A DNA stretch of 64,000 bases from a virus (taxonomy: Duplodnaviria > Caudoviricetes): the IMG/VR virus record IMGVR_UViG_3300017780_003104, positions 128,001 to 192,000 of that record; one strand, written 5' to 3'. Every line of letters starts with the position of its first letter. Position 1 is the stretch's first letter. Shown piece by piece: positions 5,505-62,219 of the stretch. The notes beneath the pieces were generated by a model. It did not search any database. It was not told the DNA's origin and worked only from the letters and a program-made list of their open reading frames with translations. The position numbers and the translations under genes are program-made.

Positions 5505-6044
5505 ATGAAACAAATAAACGCAATTACAGCAATCCTATTAGCACTTAAGAATATTAGAAACGTGCAATTTTCGATATATAATATCACCCTCGAAATTCGT
5601 GATCAGATGTATCTCGGAACCTACCAAATAGATTACACCAATTTCATTTCCCATGCGGAAGTCAAGAAGAATTTTGAGGAATTGGAATTGATGGGTCTTT
5701 TAGATGATTACACAGTAAGTCATAATGTTGATGGTTATAGACTGTATCAATTGAAACAAGAAATGGTAAACATTCCAGATGCTTCTGTGCCAACTCCAAT
5801 ACAATCCGCATTGGTTAGAGTTCAAGCAATTAGTCGTGCTAGTGTTATCCCAATGGATATTCAGAAGAAAATTTATACATACCTTAAAGGTAATGGATCG
5901 GTTTCCATGAAGCAGATTCAATCTCGCCTCAAGAATCAACCTTATACATGTAAGGATATTAAAAACTTTTTGGCCCAATTACAATTGATTGATCCTAATA
6001 CTACATCACTACCTGATAGCCAAGCTAAAACAATTAAAATCTAA
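5505..6044 (+). CDS. hypothetical protein
   Basis: ORF track. Confidence 0.6.
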   Translation: MKQINAITAILLALKNIRNVQFSIYNITLEIRDQMYLGTYQIDYTNFISHAEVKKNFEELELMGLLDDYTVSHNVDGYRLYQLKQEMVNIPDASVPTPIQSALVRVQAISRASVIPMDIQKKIYTYLKGNGSVSMKQIQSRLKNQPYTCKDIKNFLAQLQLIDPNTTSLPDSQAKTIKI

Positions 6045-6048
6045 TATT

Positions 6049-6210
6049 ATGAGAAACCTTAAAAAAAGATGGAGTGATCTCATATGGTATGAAAAGTTAG
6101 CAGCGACTCCCGGTGTTATTATCGTTGGATGTTCAGTAGTTGCAATATCACCAGTCTTGCTTTTTATGTATTGTATAATTATTACATTTGAATTACTGGA
6201 TTTTAGATGA
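6049..6210 (+). CDS. small membrane protein
   Basis: In-frame ATG at 6049 of the track ORF; hydrophobic stretch. Confidence 0.5.
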   Translation: MRNLKKRWSDLIWYEKLAATPGVIIVGCSVVAISPVLLFMYCIIITFELLDFR

Positions 6211-17492: not shown

Positions 17493-18998
17493 ATGATTAC
17501 AAATCCCTTAACACAAACAGATGCTTATAAATTATCTCATCACGGGTTTATGGACCCATTGACGGAATATATTTACGCTAACCAAACACCAAGAGGTAGT
17601 AGTTACCTACCAGTTCTGAAACAATTTTATGATGATAAGTCCGTGATCTTCGGGTTACAACATTTCATCATTGATTTCCTAATTAATGATTATAACACTG
17701 GATTCTTCAATCTCCCAAAGGAGACTGTGATCAAGAAATTCAAACGTAGGTGTGATGCATATCTAGGAAAGGATAATGTTGATATGACTCGTTTTGAAGA
17801 ATTACATGATCTTGGATATCTTCCAATTCGTATCAAGGCACTACCAGAGGGTAGCAGAGTTAATGTTAAAGTTCCATATTTTACCATTACTAATACTCAC
17901 CCTAAATTTGCTTGGCTTACTAATTATCTTGAAACTATTATTTCCTGTGAAACTTGGAAACCGATTACCAATGCCACTATCGCATTTGAATTCCGTAAGA
18001 TGTTTAATAAGTTTGCTATGGAAACAGTTGGAAATACCGATGGTGTCTGTTTTCAAGGACATGGATTTGAATTTCGTGGTATGAGTGGGAGACACGATTC
18101 TGCTATTAATGGTGCGGCATTCCTTTTAAGCTTTATGGGAACAGATACTATTCCTGCTATTGATTTACTTGAAGATTATTATAATGCTGATGCCGATAAA
18201 GAACTTATTGCTGCTTCTGTTCCAGCATCCGAACATAGCGTAAGTAGTCTTGGAACTGCATTAACAGGGGAGTTGGATTTCTTTAGAGATGCCATCACAA
18301 AACATTATCCAACTGGTATCGTTAGTCTTGTTAGTGACACCTACGACTACTTTAAAGTCATCACTGAGTATGCAACAATTCTTAAAGATGATATCTTAAA
18401 TCGTCAACCCAATGAACTTGGATTAGCTAAAGTTGTATTTAGACCTGATAGTGGAAATCCGGTCAATATTATTTGTGGTGATCCTAATGCTCCTATTGGT
18501 AGTAATGAATACAAAGGCTCCGTTGAGTGTTTATGGGAAATCTTTGGAGGGACTGTATCTGAACAAGGTTATAAGACATTAAACCAAAGGGTGGGATTAA
18601 TCTATGGAGATTCTATCACTCAACAAAGAGCGTATGATATTTTAACTCGTCTCAAAGAAAAAGGATTTGCATCTAATAATATTGTATTCGGGGTTGGGTC
18701 TTATACTTTAAATCTATTAACGCGTGATTGTTTGGGTATGGCTATTAAGGCTACTTGGGCGCAAGTTGATGGTGTGGGTTACGATATTTATAAAGATCCT
18801 ATCACTGATGATGGTCTTAAAAAGTCTGCCAAAGGTCGTCTTAGGGTTGATCTAATTGATGGTGAATATGTTTTGAAAGATCAATGCACGGAAGAAGAAG
18901 AATCTGGAGGAGAACTCAAGACAGTTTTTCTTGATGGTAAATTGATTGTTGATCAAACACTTACTGAGATTCGTGCAAGAGTCGCAACACAATTCTAA
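17493..18998 (+). CDS. nicotinamide phosphoribosyltransferase-like (Nampt/Namat candidate)
   Basis: TDAYKLSH, HGFEFRG, SVPASEHSV, VSDTYD, RPDSG, GLIYGDSIT, FGVGSYT, KKSAKG. Confidence 0.9.
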   Translation: MITNPLTQTDAYKLSHHGFMDPLTEYIYANQTPRGSSYLPVLKQFYDDKSVIFGLQHFIIDFLINDYNTGFFNLPKETVIKKFKRRCDAYLGKDNVDMTRFEELHDLGYLPIRIKALPEGSRVNVKVPYFTITNTHPKFAWLTNYLETIISCETWKPITNATIAFEFRKMFNKFAMETVGNTDGVCFQGHGFEFRGMSGRHDSAINGAAFLLSFMGTDTIPAIDLLEDYYNADADKELIAASVPASEHSVSSLGTALTGELDFFRDAITKHYPTGIVSLVSDTYDYFKVITEYATILKDDILNRQPNELGLAKVVFRPDSGNPVNIICGDPNAPIGSNEYKGSVECLWEIFGGTVSEQGYKTLNQRVGLIYGDSITQQRAYDILTRLKEKGFASNNIVFGVGSYTLNLLTRDCLGMAIKATWAQVDGVGYDIYKDPITDDGLKKSAKGRLRVDLIDGEYVLKDQCTEEEESGGELKTVFLDGKLIVDQTLTEIRARVATQF

Positions 18999-20432: not shown

Positions 20433-21230
20433 ATGAATAACAAAGACGGACTAGGAGACAGAATAAAAAATTACGAAAGTATTTCAGAGCATTACTTTCT
20501 ACCAAAGACTCCGATTATTATTCGCGTTGATGGTAAAAGTTTTCATACGTGGACTAAAGGTTGTCAAAGACCTTTCGATCAAACGCTGATCACTTGTATG
20601 TTTGAGTCTGCTAAAGAAGTAGCTAAACAAATGCAAGGTTGTAAAGCTTTGTATGCTCAATCGGATGAAGTAACATTTGTTCTTACTGATGATACTACTC
20701 TTGATTCACAACAATGGTTTGGCGGTAGACAGAACAAGATTGAAAGTGTTACTGCTGCAATGATGACAGCATACTTTAATAAGAATTGGTTACATTCTGT
20801 TCCTAGACATATGGTTGATTATGATTTTCACGTAGATTACACCCCCGCTATCTTTGATGCCCGTGCTTTTCAATGTCCTAAAGATGATGTTGCTAATGTC
20901 TTTCTATGGAGAGTAAAGGATTGGGAACGTAATAGTCTCAATATGTATTGTGAACAGTTCTTCTCTCATAAGGAACTGCAAGGTCAAGGTCGTGCTGATA
21001 GACATGAAATGCTTCATAAGATTGGACATAATTGGGCTACTGAATGCACCGATCAACAAAAGAATGGTTCGTGGTATTCTCCGGGAAAACCTGATAAGTT
21101 CAACCTCACTAATTACTATGATATCGATGATTATATCTTTCGTGACGGTATTGCTTATGTAATGTCAAAGAAGATGCAATCAGAGGATTTAAGTTGGATG
21201 AGTAAAATGATTGTAAAGAGAATGGGTTAA
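20433..21230 (+). CDS. tRNA(His) guanylyltransferase Thg1-like
   Basis: IRVDGKSFH, YAQSDEVT, WFGGR..KIES, FDARAF, WRVKDWERNS. Confidence 0.9.
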   Translation: MNNKDGLGDRIKNYESISEHYFLPKTPIIIRVDGKSFHTWTKGCQRPFDQTLITCMFESAKEVAKQMQGCKALYAQSDEVTFVLTDDTTLDSQQWFGGRQNKIESVTAAMMTAYFNKNWLHSVPRHMVDYDFHVDYTPAIFDARAFQCPKDDVANVFLWRVKDWERNSLNMYCEQFFSHKELQGQGRADRHEMLHKIGHNWATECTDQQKNGSWYSPGKPDKFNLTNYYDIDDYIFRDGIAYVMSKKMQSEDLSWMSKMIVKRMG

Positions 21231-22673: not shown

Positions 22674-24329
22674 ATGTTTGAGAATAAAAGAAACGCAGAA
22701 GTCGTGACTGTTAAATCAGTTACTCGTAAGGAAGTTAACGCATTCCTAAACAATGCTAAAGCAGAATCATCCAAGACTCGTTCTGGTAACGGGGCATTGA
22801 AATTCAGTTCAAGTGGTGATTCGTTTACCGATCAGTTTACTAAGGCTGGTAAGTATAAGGAACCTCGTAAGTTCTCTCAAATCGCACAAGATTGTGAAAT
22901 GTTGTGGGGTGAAGACCCTCTCAAGTGTGTGAAGTTCGCATTGTTTCTTCGTACTATTCCTCGCGTAGTTAATCTTCCTGATGGAAGTAAGACTGAACTT
23001 CCTCAAAAGGGAACCGAGTTGAAGCATGAAGCAATTATGCGTATGCTTTGGTTGAGTGATAAGTCTCCTCAAGCATTCTGGAATAACATTCTATTGTTTG
23101 TTTCTCTTGGATCTTGGCACGATGTTTTCACTATGCTTCAATATGATCTTAGCTACAACGGTTGGAATAATCGTAAGCTTGATTGGGATAAGTTTGGTGA
23201 GTTGATTCTTGCTGGTCTTAACAATAAGAACACCTGTGATCTTATTAAGAAGTATCTTCCTCAAATCAAGTCTCGTAGTCAAGCTACGACTATTGATGCT
23301 CAATCCAACAATGCTATTGCTAAGTGGATTTGCTCTCTAGTCTTTGGTAACAAGGAAAGCGCATCTTCATACAAGGCTTATCGTAAGATCAAGACTAGTG
23401 GAACCGCGCATGATTGGCAAAAGCTTATCTCCCAAAAGAGAATGAGTGAATTGGATTTCAATAAAATTCATGGTCGTGCTCTATCAATTCTTGTTAAGAG
23501 TAAGTTCTTAAAGAACCAAGGACTTAGCGATAAGTATGCATCTTGGATTACTGCACCTACCACCAAGGAAGTTAAGTATACTGGATTCGTCCATGAACTC
23601 TTCGAAGGTAACTGGAAGAACGATAAGAACAACGAAGCAACTATCAATAAGCAATTCGATACTCTTGTTCAAAAGGCAAGAACTAATGAAGTTACTGATT
23701 TGATTGTCGTTCGTGATACTTCTGGATCGATGTCTTCAATTTGTCCCGGCACTAAGTCTTCATGTCTTGATGTTGGAAAGGCAATCGCTCTATACTTTAG
23801 TGAATTCCTTCAAGGAACCTTTGCGGGTCATTGGATTGAATTCAACTCTGATGCTAAACTTCAAAAATGGGTTGGTCAAACTCCCGTTGATAAGTGGAAG
23901 AATGATAAGTCAAGCTTTTATGGTGGAACTAACTTTCAAAGTGTTGTTAATCTTCTCGCTAAGATGAAGAAAGAGGGAACACCTGAAAGTGATTTCCCTA
24001 GCGGTATCCTTTGCATTTCCGATGCAGAATTCAATCCTACTTCATTAGGTAAAACTAATGTTGAGACTGCGTTGACTACTCTTCGTAATGCTGGATTCTC
24101 CAAGGCTTATGTTGATAACTTTGTGATTATTCTTTGGAACCTTCAAAATAGTTATTATGGTAAAGGGTCTGGTGAAAAGTTTGAGACTGGTAAAGAAGTA
24201 AACAACGTTTACTATCTGGGTGGGTATAGTGCCTCCGCAGTTAGTTTCCTTTCAGCTAAGATCAAGACAACCTATGATCTAATCAACGAGTGTCTTAATC
24301 AGGAAGTTTTGAATATGGTTGAGATTTAA
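22674..24329 (+). CDS. TROVE/Ro60-like (DUF2828-type) helical domain + C-terminal vWA domain
   Basis: vWA MIDAS-like VVRDTSGSM, GGTNFQSV, CISDAEF, ILWNL; N-terminal FSSSGDSFTDQF, LGSWHDVF. Confidence 0.7.
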   Translation: MFENKRNAEVVTVKSVTRKEVNAFLNNAKAESSKTRSGNGALKFSSSGDSFTDQFTKAGKYKEPRKFSQIAQDCEMLWGEDPLKCVKFALFLRTIPRVVNLPDGSKTELPQKGTELKHEAIMRMLWLSDKSPQAFWNNILLFVSLGSWHDVFTMLQYDLSYNGWNNRKLDWDKFGELILAGLNNKNTCDLIKKYLPQIKSRSQATTIDAQSNNAIAKWICSLVFGNKESASSYKAYRKIKTSGTAHDWQKLISQKRMSELDFNKIHGRALSILVKSKFLKNQGLSDKYASWITAPTTKEVKYTGFVHELFEGNWKNDKNNEATINKQFDTLVQKARTNEVTDLIVVRDTSGSMSSICPGTKSSCLDVGKAIALYFSEFLQGTFAGHWIEFNSDAKLQKWVGQTPVDKWKNDKSSFYGGTNFQSVVNLLAKMKKEGTPESDFPSGILCISDAEFNPTSLGKTNVETALTTLRNAGFSKAYVDNFVIILWNLQNSYYGKGSGEKFETGKEVNNVYYLGGYSASAVSFLSAKIKTTYDLINECLNQEVLNMVEI

Positions 24330-24558
24330 ATATCTTAAACTTTCTATCTAAAAAGAGAGTGGAGTCTTTGTAAATAAAGTTTCCGATGCGACCAACTTTA
24401 TCTAGAATCAATAGACAAGCCGACTGATTTGGAAAAATTTACAATGACAATAATAACAGCAAAATTAGAAGAGGTTGACAAATCTAAATTTCATGATTAA
24501 ATAAAGATCCGATGAGGTTTCGGTAGCTTCCTATGGCGAACAAATAAAACTACCAATA

Positions 24559-25461
24559 AGATTGCTTCAGCAAATATATTTTTATTTAAGGAAAAACAAA
24601 AGCAATCTGATAAGAGGACAAACTACAAATACAAAAAATCAAACGTCCTCTGATAAGAATAAGTAACAGCAAAAACAATAAAAAATAAAAGCAAATATGC
24701 TAAACGATGAAAGTCGTCCGGGTATCCTCACCATATTAGAGGTTGTAATATGGAGCTTAGAAGGGAGTCAATCTTAACTTATTCTGATAAAGTCATAAAC
24801 TGCAAATAAAAATACTATTATGCAAAATAGCCTGTCGGTGGGTCCGAGGTAACTAAAACGGTTCGATTCCGTATCTATGACTTGCATAAAATCTCTTCAG
24901 CAAATAACGGAACGTAAAACTCCCATACGTGTGGTTCAAATCCCGCTGCTCACACTTTATTAAAAAGTGGGTATAGCCAAGTGGTAAGGCAGGAGTCCAA
25001 AAACAATGAGATTTAATAGAAATACTCCAGCAAATAACGCAACAAGGAACCGTGTGTCGAACGTTCGATTCGTTCTCTCCCACCATATAAGTAAAATGGG
25101 AGGTAGCTCAGTTGGTAGAGCAACGGTAAGCAAAAAACATAGTATTTCGATAGGATTATATTCAGCAAATATACTACTCAACTGTTAATTGAAAAAAGTA
25201 AAAGTAATCCGATAAGAATTTCAGCAGCATAATATCGTAACTATAACGACTCTAAGGTAGCTTAGGTTTGGGAAACCAATACGGCGATGGTAGATAGGTA
25301 AACTAAGTTCTTTATAGAATATGTAAACCCTACGGGACGAACGATTGAATATTTATATATTCTTTAATGTGTCAGTGAAAGATGAAATTCTGATAAAATT
25401 AGCAACAGCAAACCAAACAAAAATTTGACTTTTAATCAAACAATAAAATGCTAATTTGATA
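24559..25461 (+). ncRNA. array of nine tandem stem-CAGCAAA-cargo-stem-GATA RNA modules (Y RNA-like)
   Basis: Nine different but self-complementary 7-9 bp closing stems; shared CAGCAAA-like bulge; 4-5 nt GATA-like linkers. Confidence 0.85.
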
Positions 25462-25462
25462 C

Positions 25463-38639: not shown

Positions 38640-38733
38640 ATGAGTGTGACCCGAATTGGTTAAGGGCGCGGTTTCATAAACCGTTATGAGGTTGATAGCC
38701 TCTTTGAGAGTTCGAGTCTCTCCACTCATACCA
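38640..38733 (+). tRNA. tRNA with CAU anticodon (Met or Ile2) and long variable arm
   Basis: ATGAGTG/CACTCAT acceptor; loop TT-CAT-AA; GAGG/CCTC variable arm; A73 + CCA. Confidence 0.85.
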
Positions 38734-62144: not shown

Positions 62145-62219
62145 TGGTGGGAATGGAGAATTTTGCAATCTCAACCTTCTGAATGTAAATCAGTTGCTCC
62201 ACTTTTGAGCTACACTCCC
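62145..62219 (-). tRNA. tRNA-Val(UAC) with atypical T-loop
   Basis: GGGAGTG/CATTCCC-A-CCA; loop TT-TAC-AT; T-loop lacks TTC. Confidence 0.8.

Follow-up and report, generated by a model that had tools for sequence, protein, structure and literature searches.

A Y-RNA-like array with tRNA-like cargo beside a Ro60-like gene in a freshwater jumbo phage

In the genome of a freshwater jumbo phage, the gene of a 551-aa Ro60-like protein is followed by an array of about ten abutting RNA units, two of which (units 5 and 6) enclose tRNA-like bodies in circularly permuted order. The stretch of DNA analysed here (the window) is 64,000 nucleotides long and covers positions 128,001 to 192,000 of the IMG/VR record IMGVR_UViG_3300017780_003104, a complete genome of 211.7 kb with terminal repeats. 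The RNA tract (24330-25462 of the window) starts directly 3′ of the gene and contains no credible open reading frame. An original prediction had described units 5 and 6 as circularly permuted tRNAs with the topology of YrlA-type Y RNAs, and a script located every string that it quoted where it had been placed. Relatives of the gene were gathered from IMG/VR (86 loci) and from GenBank phages, and their loci are designated by L numbers, L001-L006 being the closest to the window. The coordinates of all features are given in Table 1.

The 551-aa protein matches the Pfam family DUF7788 (E 5e-10) and, in PHROGs, phrog_850, which is annotated as ‘RNA-binding protein’; DUF2828 is also present in some of its 1711 homologues. 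Its AlphaFold (AF2) model, obtained from an input of 22 sequences, has a predicted local distance difference test score (pLDDT) of 79 and a predicted template modelling score (pTM) of 0.76. When this model is compared with the PDB using Foldseek, each of the top 11 matches is a full-length alignment to a Ro60/TROVE protein (E 7e-8 to 1e-3), the proteins being those of Thermus phage phiLo, Xenopus and human. The best matches among the AFDB Swiss-Prot models are the Ro60 proteins of Deinococcus, C. elegans, Xenopus, mouse and human. From these structural matches, the protein is predicted to be Ro60-shaped, i.e. a helical ring with a vWA domain, and too diverged for the TROVE profile. A literature search found no paper on the RNA partners of DUF2828/DUF7788 proteins.

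What the units of the array have in common is a handle, inside which the cargo varies from unit to unit. The handle begins with a terminal stem of 7-9 bp whose sequence differs between units. Immediately 3′ of the 5′ stem arm stands (A)CAGCAAAUA, with ACAGCAAAUA on the 5′ side, and an A-rich strand, GAAAAACAAAA or CCAAAAACAA, stands ahead of the 3′ arm. The result beyond the terminal stem is an asymmetric A-rich internal loop with ACAGCAAAUA on its 5′ strand and a CCAAAAACAA-like sequence on its 3′ strand. A UGAUAAG-like linker joins each unit to the next. The promoter-like sequence TTGACA-N17-TAAATA ahead of the array was read by eye, and is also found 3′ of the homologous gene in L002 and L004. 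A scan with promoter and terminator consensus sequences gave a signal no higher than in shuffled sequences and found no terminator; the promoter-like element, whose second hexamer ends in A, is not listed by it.

Unit 6 carries tRNA-body mimic B, which has canonical class-I geometry. It reads, from 5′ to 3′, ACCGT, a 5-nt variable loop (GTGTC), the T arm, the closed acceptor stem, U8 and A9, the D arm, A26 and ACGGT. The T arm, GAACG-TTCGATT-CGTTC (25059-25075), consists of a 5-bp stem and the loop UUCGAUU. The acceptor stem, TCTCCCA/TGGGAGG, has 7 bp and is closed by a 14-nt loop beginning with CCA, while the D arm, TAGCTCAGTTGGTAGAGCA (25104-25122), has a 4-bp stem, GCTC-AGTTGGTA-GAGC, and the loop AGUUGGUA. 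The minimum free energy (MFE) structure given by RNAfold for 25019-25152 is the proposed four-way junction within an 8-bp terminal stem, at -30.4 kcal/mol. Among the Rfam families, YrlA is the best match of unit 6 (33 bits, E 5.6e-5), and the match comprises model positions 23-85, that is, the tRNA-like core only.

The body in unit 5, mimic A, resembles tRNA-Leu (type II). Its order is ACTCC, a 5-nt variable loop, a degenerate T arm, the closed acceptor stem, UA, the D arm, A and GGAGT. The acceptor stem, TGCTCAC/GTGGGTA, has 7 bp and a 13-nt loop, and the D arm, GCC-AAGUGGUAA-GGC, has a 3-bp stem of the tRNA-Leu/Ser type. In the T stem there are either 4 bp around an 8-nt loop or, if the canonical register is imposed, 2 of 5 pairs. 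The proposed fold of 24889-25016 has a free energy of -22.0 vs. -24.1 kcal/mol for the MFE structure, and there is no Rfam YrlA match. The orthologues of unit 5 in L002, L003 and L004 all have a perfect T arm, and those in L002 and L003 also have a long variable arm. In the window unit this variable arm is lost together with part of the T stem, and the variable arm is lost in L004 too. The D arm and T loop of these orthologues match those of E. coli tRNA-Leu.

For each unit, a construct in the usual order was made, in which an arbitrary 7-nt loop links the 5′ half to the 3′ half and ACCA forms the end. ARAGORN calls both of these re-permuted constructs tRNA and none of 2000 shuffled sequences for each, a call that depends on the artificial anticodon loop supplied. 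In the native order, neither ARAGORN nor Rfam (RF00005) finds a tRNA in the tract. Units 5 and 6 neither encode an anticodon loop nor allow one to be recovered, and the flanks of the anticodon-stem-like (AC-like) helix are the strands of the handle. The phage also encodes 22 ordinary tRNAs; a recent duplication from these was rejected, neither body being a close copy of any of the 22.

In L006, a unit directly 3′ of the Ro60-like gene (2702-2818) contains a tRNA body whose halves follow the normal order and whose acceptor is open; Rfam scores it as tRNA at 56.8 bits. The site of its anticodon loop is taken by the A-rich strand CUGUAAAAU, the hairpin GAACUC-AGCG-GAGUUU and UAACAGCAAAUAUAC (UAACAGCAAAUA). 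This unit is a natural re-permutation, in which the architecture of body and handle is conserved and the position of the RNA ends is not, and it argues against a need to regenerate an anticodon loop. Its 44-nt insert is the only credible one among the intron-permitting ARAGORN calls, those with introns of 0.9-2 kb across the gene being spurious.

In order to find further bodies of this kind, a covariance model of the permuted tRNA body (R1) was built from 17 modules; it superseded a strict hand-written pattern whose 15 matches included some false ones. R1 scores unit 6 at 78.4 bits and unit 5 at 60.7 bits, and, across the 86 loci with homologous genes, yields 106 matches at E<0.01, each on the same strand as the gene. 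It should be noted that junctions of tandem tRNA genes can produce false matches, as was also pointed out by Chen et al. 2014 (PMC4201824). Matches below ~35 bits, together with one at 47.6 bits, were dropped as such junctions, and those in Bacillus phage MrDarsey and Campylobacter phage Los1, which lie in tandem-tRNA regions, look like the same artefact. Among the 44 best R1 matches there is one artefact of this type. In the whole genome of 211.7 kb, the other R1 matches that were compared with the ARAGORN tRNA list, i.e. all except the two weakest (<25 bits), are junction artefacts in tRNA clusters.

The conservation of the modules was assessed on the 36 R1 matches at E<1e-6, which come from 29 loci and include freshwater jumbo phages, E. 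coli Felixounavirus adrianh and Enterococcus phage EFDG1. A perfect stem of 7-9 bp frames 32 of them and is followed on the 5′ side by (A)CAGCAA; on the 3′ side, GAUAAG-like linkers are found in most cases. The left linker of the framed modules is ~26 nt long, and the right linker is ~10 nt long and A-rich. Over all helices, 87% of the cells are paired, as against 37-48% in controls with the partner columns shifted by 1-3 positions. Pairing reaches 96.7% in the acceptor hairpin, where each of the 7 pairs shows compensatory changes, 99.4% in the T stem and 86% in the D stem. U8, G10, A14, G18, G53, U54, U55, C56, A58 and C61 are invariant. The Levitt pair 15:48 is G:C in 22 modules, A:U in 11 and something else in 3 (Fisher p = 4e-8). 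The original prediction that the acceptor stem is closed by a loop and that the connection to the handle takes the place of the anticodon loop is borne out. The ARAGORN check that it called for, on the re-permuted sequences, likewise comes out in its favour. Of its wording ‘circularly permuted tRNAs’ the topology holds, the 3′ half being upstream of the 5′ half in both units as in permuted genes, but the units are not permuted tRNA genes of the Cyanidioschyzon type.

An array with the same grammar stands 3′ of the gene in all seven of the closest loci (L001-L006 and the window), which were read base by base. The same handle adjoins the gene in phages where protein identity is only 22-26%, namely Listeria LMTA-94, Enterococcus EFDG1, Bacillus MrDarsey, Campylobacter Los1 and E. 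coli Felixounavirus adrianh. In these GenBank phages the handle units are unannotated and stand next to the DUF2828 gene or within the tRNA clusters (Table 1). In adrianh, they occupy gaps of a tRNA cluster with a DUF2828-family gene upstream. When the 18 window genes around the locus are compared with 85 related loci, the Ro60-like gene is found in 85, the NAMPT (nicotinamide phosphoribosyltransferase) gene in 16 and the others in 0-2. Synteny across the 85 loci is thus limited to the gene and the RNA array, which together are the conserved unit. In the Erwinia jumbo phage pEa_SNUABM_44 there is no non-coding gap at the gene, and the array has no nucleotide match among GenBank phages. A regular-expression tally of handle units (525 on the + strand, 233 on the - strand, 104 in shuffled sequences) was dropped as too noisy.

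YrlA RNAs have the order variable region, T arm, closed acceptor and D arm, and are encoded beside Ro60, in phages too (PMC4201824); a preprint on YrlA structure is also available (10.1101/312249). The order in units 5 and 6 is identical. With YrlA being the best Rfam match and the neighbouring protein predicted to fold as Ro60, the YrlA-type topology claimed by the original prediction is upheld. In both cases the ends of the RNA are paired in a stem and enclose an internal tRNA-like domain in the same order. Both keep the conserved tertiary nucleotides and the 15:48 covariation, the signature once used to argue that YrlA has a tRNA-like fold. YrlA lies next to a Ro60 gene and the units lie next to the gene of a protein that is Ro60-like by predicted fold, although Pfam assigns it to DUF7788/DUF2828 and not to TROVE. 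Furthermore, several Y RNAs are encoded per locus, and some YrlA-type loci include one with only a T arm (YrlB, to be compared with unit 4).

There are also differences. The phage units are built on another handle (ACAGCAAAUA and the A-rich strand) without the GNCGAAN0-1G helix of YrlA, and the partner here belongs to DUF2828/DUF7788 instead of Pfam TROVE. They are arranged head to tail, 5 to 14 or more per array, and their cargo is interchangeable; they have full 7-bp acceptor stems and include both class-I and tRNA-Leu-like (type II) bodies. In the Rfam comparison (RF02553), YrlA is the best family for unit 6, but neither its 33 bits nor the 46.4 bits reached by the orthologous unit of L005 against the full model, with the outer helices marked as non-pairs, attain the gathering threshold of 69 bits. 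Given that both the threshold and the binding stem fail, the units appear to function like YrlA while falling outside that family. As far as can be judged from sequence, units 5 and 6 are a Y RNA variant on a new handle and with a new protein family.

Taken together, we consider it likely that units 5 and 6 are Y-RNA-like scaffolds, whose handle would dock onto the Ro60-like protein and whose cargo would present the L shape of a tRNA devoid of its anticodon. The units of the array would probably be transcribed together from the putative promoter just 3′ of the gene, and the precursor would be processed at the UGAUAAG linkers. The 5′ and 3′ ends of each RNA would pair into the 7-9 bp stem, and the adjacent Ro60-shaped DUF2828/DUF7788 protein would bind the handle. 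The cargo of units 5 and 6 is expected to fold as a tRNA L shape without an anticodon loop because the D-loop/T-loop elbow nucleotides and the 15:48 Levitt pair are kept. The particle would then present a mimic of tRNA to proteins that read the elbow and the acceptor arm. It might act as a sponge for host enzymes of tRNA-directed defence, or as a tether recruiting a tRNA-handling enzyme to the Ro60-like ring, in the way YrlA/Yrn1 do for Rsr. There is no third conserved gene at the loci, so the protein that reads the cargo would be encoded by the host or elsewhere in the phage.

Several observations weigh against this interpretation. The Pfam search of the 551-aa protein leaves TROVE unmatched, and the GNCGAAN0-1G motif and Ro60-binding stem of YrlA do not align in the handle, which has ACAGCAAAUA instead. 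The AC-like helix is only 62% paired in the 36 modules and is absent in some of them, and unit 5, with its degenerate T stem, may be decaying. The alignment behind the conservation values was fitted to R1 and its related sequences are not independent, and the covariation and Levitt pattern could in part be inherited from different parent tRNAs. Finally, the computations favour neither the decoy nor the tether.

A variant compatible with the Y-RNA-like scaffold, which we regard as rather unlikely, is that RNase P opens the acceptor hairpin 5′ of the 5′ strand. After trimming of the 3′ end, with CCA added or already encoded, this would leave a two-piece tRNA mimic that is held together by the handle and is possibly aminoacylated. 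The M. smegmatis YrlA, the sole YrlA with a 7-bp acceptor stem, provides a precedent since in vivo it is cleaved by RNase P and acquires CCA, whereas S. Typhimurium YrlA and D. radiodurans Yrn1 remain uncleaved (PMC4201824). Both window units have 7-bp acceptor stems, CCA is encoded immediately after the stem of unit 6, and the acceptor loop in the 36 modules often opens with a purine and then C, as N73-C74 would. The orthologues of unit 5, with the D arm and T loop of tRNA-Leu, keep the discriminator A, and a Leu-type body would be fitting, as LeuRS does not read the anticodon. On the other hand, the acceptor loops vary in length between 2 and 68 nt without a conserved CCA, the Leu identity set is not conserved, and the long variable arm is lost in unit 5 of the window and in L004.

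The tRNA-like folds could also be mere processing signals, i.e. punctuation at which RNase P/Z cuts the array precursor. Such use of tRNA-like elements is known from mitochondrial transcripts and from the mascRNA of MALAT1, and the 7-bp acceptor stems would suit it. However, the folds lie inside the units and not between them, only 2 of the ~10 units bear one, and the unit borders are marked by the UGAUAAG linker instead, which makes this explanation very improbable.

Slightly less credible still are genuine permuted or split tRNA genes whose transcripts are circularised or spliced across the handle and opened at the acceptor. Circularly permuted tRNA genes are found in Cyanidioschyzon merolae and split tRNAs in Nanoarchaeum, and the phage units resemble them in having the 3′ half upstream on one strand and complementary flanks that unite the halves. 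The re-permuted constructs pass ARAGORN, and an RtcB-type ligase is encoded near the gene in some related phages (L010). Unlike those genes, the phage units have neither an anticodon loop nor a bulge-helix-bulge motif nor any evidence of circularisation. The flanks of the AC-like stem, which is often short or missing, are the handle strands themselves (CCAAAAACAA-type and ACAGCAAAUA linkers) without the U33/R37 pattern. The same handle bears unrelated cargo in other units, and the normal-order version in L006 keeps it at the anticodon-loop site. Moreover, the phage already has its 22 ordinary tRNAs, and its host is a bacterium without the archaeal-eukaryal splicing endonuclease.

Functionless debris of tandem tRNA genes, namely the 3′ half of a decayed tRNA next to the 5′ half of the following one, could be invoked since tandem tRNA junctions score ~25-47 bits with R1 and the gene family often adjoins tRNA clusters, but this reading is refuted for practical purposes because the acceptor strands covary (7/7 pairs in both units and the compensated pairing across the 36 modules, unexpected for unrelated neighbours), besides which the AC-like strands pair, the modules are placed precisely within the handle and the bodies are not close copies of the phage tRNAs.

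The remaining units of the array carry other cargo. Unit 4 has a conserved hairpin and, as originally predicted, an isolated T arm; it is kept in four phages (the window, L001, L002 and L004), and both of its hairpins show compensatory changes. Units 7 and 9 contain hairpins of the anticodon-arm type, and a CUUUUAA hairpin similar to that of unit 9 occurs in unit 2 of L001. The long cargo of units 3 and 8 is shared with L002 (5135-5262 and 5692-5875, respectively), examples of the common strings being GATGAAAGTCGT..GGTATCCTCACCATAT and TAAGGTAG..GGGAAACC.ATACGGCGATGGTAGATAG. In a freshwater-sediment metatranscriptome, two contigs with a depth of 2.5-4.7 match 24807-25069 and 24184-24406 exactly, and the other two of the three metatranscriptomes examined contain no matching sequence. 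The first contig, which runs from the end of unit 4 through the whole of unit 5 into the beginning of unit 6, is a weak hint that the array is expressed, as carry-over of DNA is possible and contigs do not reveal ends, strand or transcription.

Table 1. Positions of the Ro60-like gene, the array and its parts, and related features in other phages (window coordinates unless a locus is named).
Feature	Position	Strand	Basis or remark
Gene of 551-aa Ro60-like protein, DUF2828/DUF7788 family	22674-24329	+	presumed protein partner of the array RNAs
Putative promoter, TTGACA-N17-TAAATA, ahead of array	24476-24504	+	read by eye
Rest of array, units 1-3 and 7-9	24556-25462	+	same handle, other cargo; unit parsing
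Unit matching RF01414	24560-24609	+	
Unit 3	24657-24784		long cargo
Unit 4	24790-24883	+	conserved hairpin and isolated T arm ACGG-TTCGATT-CCGT at 24858-24872
Unit 5, whole	24889-25014	+	terminal stem AAATCTC (24889-24895) pairs with GAGATTT (25008-25014)
Unit 5, left linker	24896-24918		contains CAGCAAATA
tRNA-body mimic A	24919-24996	+	R1; ARAGORN on re-permuted construct; ACTCC 24919, GTGGTTCAAATCCCGC 24931, TGCTCAC 24947, GTGGGTA 24967, TAGCCAAGTGGTAAGGCA 24974, GGAGT 24992
Unit 5, A-rich right linker	24997-25007		CCAAAAACAAT
Unit 6, whole	25019-25148	+	terminal stem GAAATACT (25019-25026) pairs with AGTATTTC (25141-25148)
Unit 6, left linker	25027-25048		contains CCAGCAAATA
tRNA-body mimic B	25049-25127	+	Rfam YrlA; R1; ARAGORN on re-permuted construct; CCGT 25050, TCTCCCA then CCA 25076-25085, TGGGAGG 25097, ACGG 25123
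Unit 6, A-rich right linker	25128-25140		AAGCAAAAAACAT
Weaker RF01414 match	25154-25211		16 bits
Unit 7 hairpin UCAA-CUGUUAA-UUGA	25178-25192		Asn(GUU)-type anticodon arm
Unit 8	25216-25390		long cargo
Unit 9 hairpin UUUGA-CUUUUAA-UCAAA	25424-25440		Lys(UUU)-type anticodon arm
Units matching RF01414	L001 6734-6791, 6962-7013; L002-L005 simple units	+	
Handle units, E. coli Felixounavirus adrianh	L009 5835-6040		unannotated, in gaps of tRNA cluster; one with permuted tRNA body (unit at ~5926-6050)
Handle units, Listeria LMTA-94	L010 2670-2930		unannotated
Handle units, Enterococcus EFDG1	L011 2430-2900		unannotated; tRNA-body units at ~2437-2560 and ~2630-2760
Permuted tRNA body, EFDG1	L011 1042-1113		between annotated tRNA-Ala and tRNA-Pro; no handle found around it
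Handle units, Bacillus MrDarsey	L100 2470-2930		unannotated
Handle units, Campylobacter Los1	L101 2335-2500		unannotated

The handle itself, as distinct from the tRNA-like cargo, may have a counterpart among eukaryotes. Units without cargo (~50-60 nt) from seven loci match the Rfam family Dicty_Class_I_RNA (RF01414) at 26-39 bits, below its threshold of 41.5, and always on the + strand in arrays. For the simple units of the window the scores are 16-30 bits. Dictyostelid Class I RNAs are encoded by single genes with promoters of their own and are bound by the RRM protein CIBP (PMC7919456, Kjellin et al. 2021). They share with the phage handle an AAG start, a short covarying terminal stem, a variable interior and a CUG(U) end, as well as (CC)UUACAGCAA directly 3′ of the 5′ stem arm. 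Units 5 and 6 differ from them in carrying ~80-nt tRNA-like inserts and have no RF01414 match. An RNA family common to phages and dictyostelids may exist.

A Ro60-like protein has also been described in the Felix-O1-like phage Bas63, where gp130 is structurally Ro60-like, counters the ppl defence and is encoded upstream of a tRNA cluster (PMC11482910). The authors of that PhageMaP preprint guess that some of the annotated Bas63 tRNAs are Y RNAs (PMC11482910). Gp130 is a candidate member of the DUF2828/DUF7788 family, and the RNAs concerned are not identified in that paper.

Just upstream of the Ro60-like gene, the window encodes NAMPT (17493-18998) and a Thg1-like tRNA-His guanylyltransferase (20433-21230). 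In the 16 of 85 related loci mentioned above, NAMPT and the Ro60-like gene are no more than 2.5 kb apart. These surroundings may represent an anti-defence or RNA-repair neighbourhood. As to the tRNAs of the phage, ARAGORN reports one with the anticodon CUA (labelled Pyl or suppressor) outside the window, at G000:C1:196159-196232, and others in two relatives (L015 5320-5393 and L045 5219-5293), which hints at TAG read-through or recoding. Within the window, Rfam finds a tRNA at 62148-62219 (-) that ARAGORN does not call, and ARAGORN calls a 94-nt tRNA-Met at 38640-38733 that does not reach the Rfam threshold.

To our knowledge, tRNA-mimicking Y RNAs are known only for classical Ro60/Rsr. Here, the same design of cargo is found on a different and sharply defined handle, beside a gene of the little-studied DUF2828/DUF7788 family in many unrelated phages, and with the cargo swapped between units. 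A broader hypothesis, which we put forward tentatively and consider possible rather than probable, is that the handle is a universal adaptor for a Ro60-like ring protein spread over many phage families. The arrays would then be exchangeable racks of look-alikes of translation RNAs (tRNA bodies and anticodon arms), in which the tRNA-body units soak up or redirect host immune enzymes that read the elbow or the acceptor end. If so, they would constitute a general RNA-based anti-defence system, and the occurrence of this handle in dictyostelid Class I RNAs would point to a shared and very old ribonucleoprotein. In one Felix-O1-like phage, a genetic screen has tied a Ro60-like protein to escape from a defence system. 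For genome annotation, these findings provide a means to recognise RNAs that are at present unannotated and whose junction-like look-alikes can be mistaken for tRNA clusters. Since the module is present in laboratory phages, namely Felix-O1-like coliphages and EFDG1, the role of tRNA-like Y RNA domains is directly testable.

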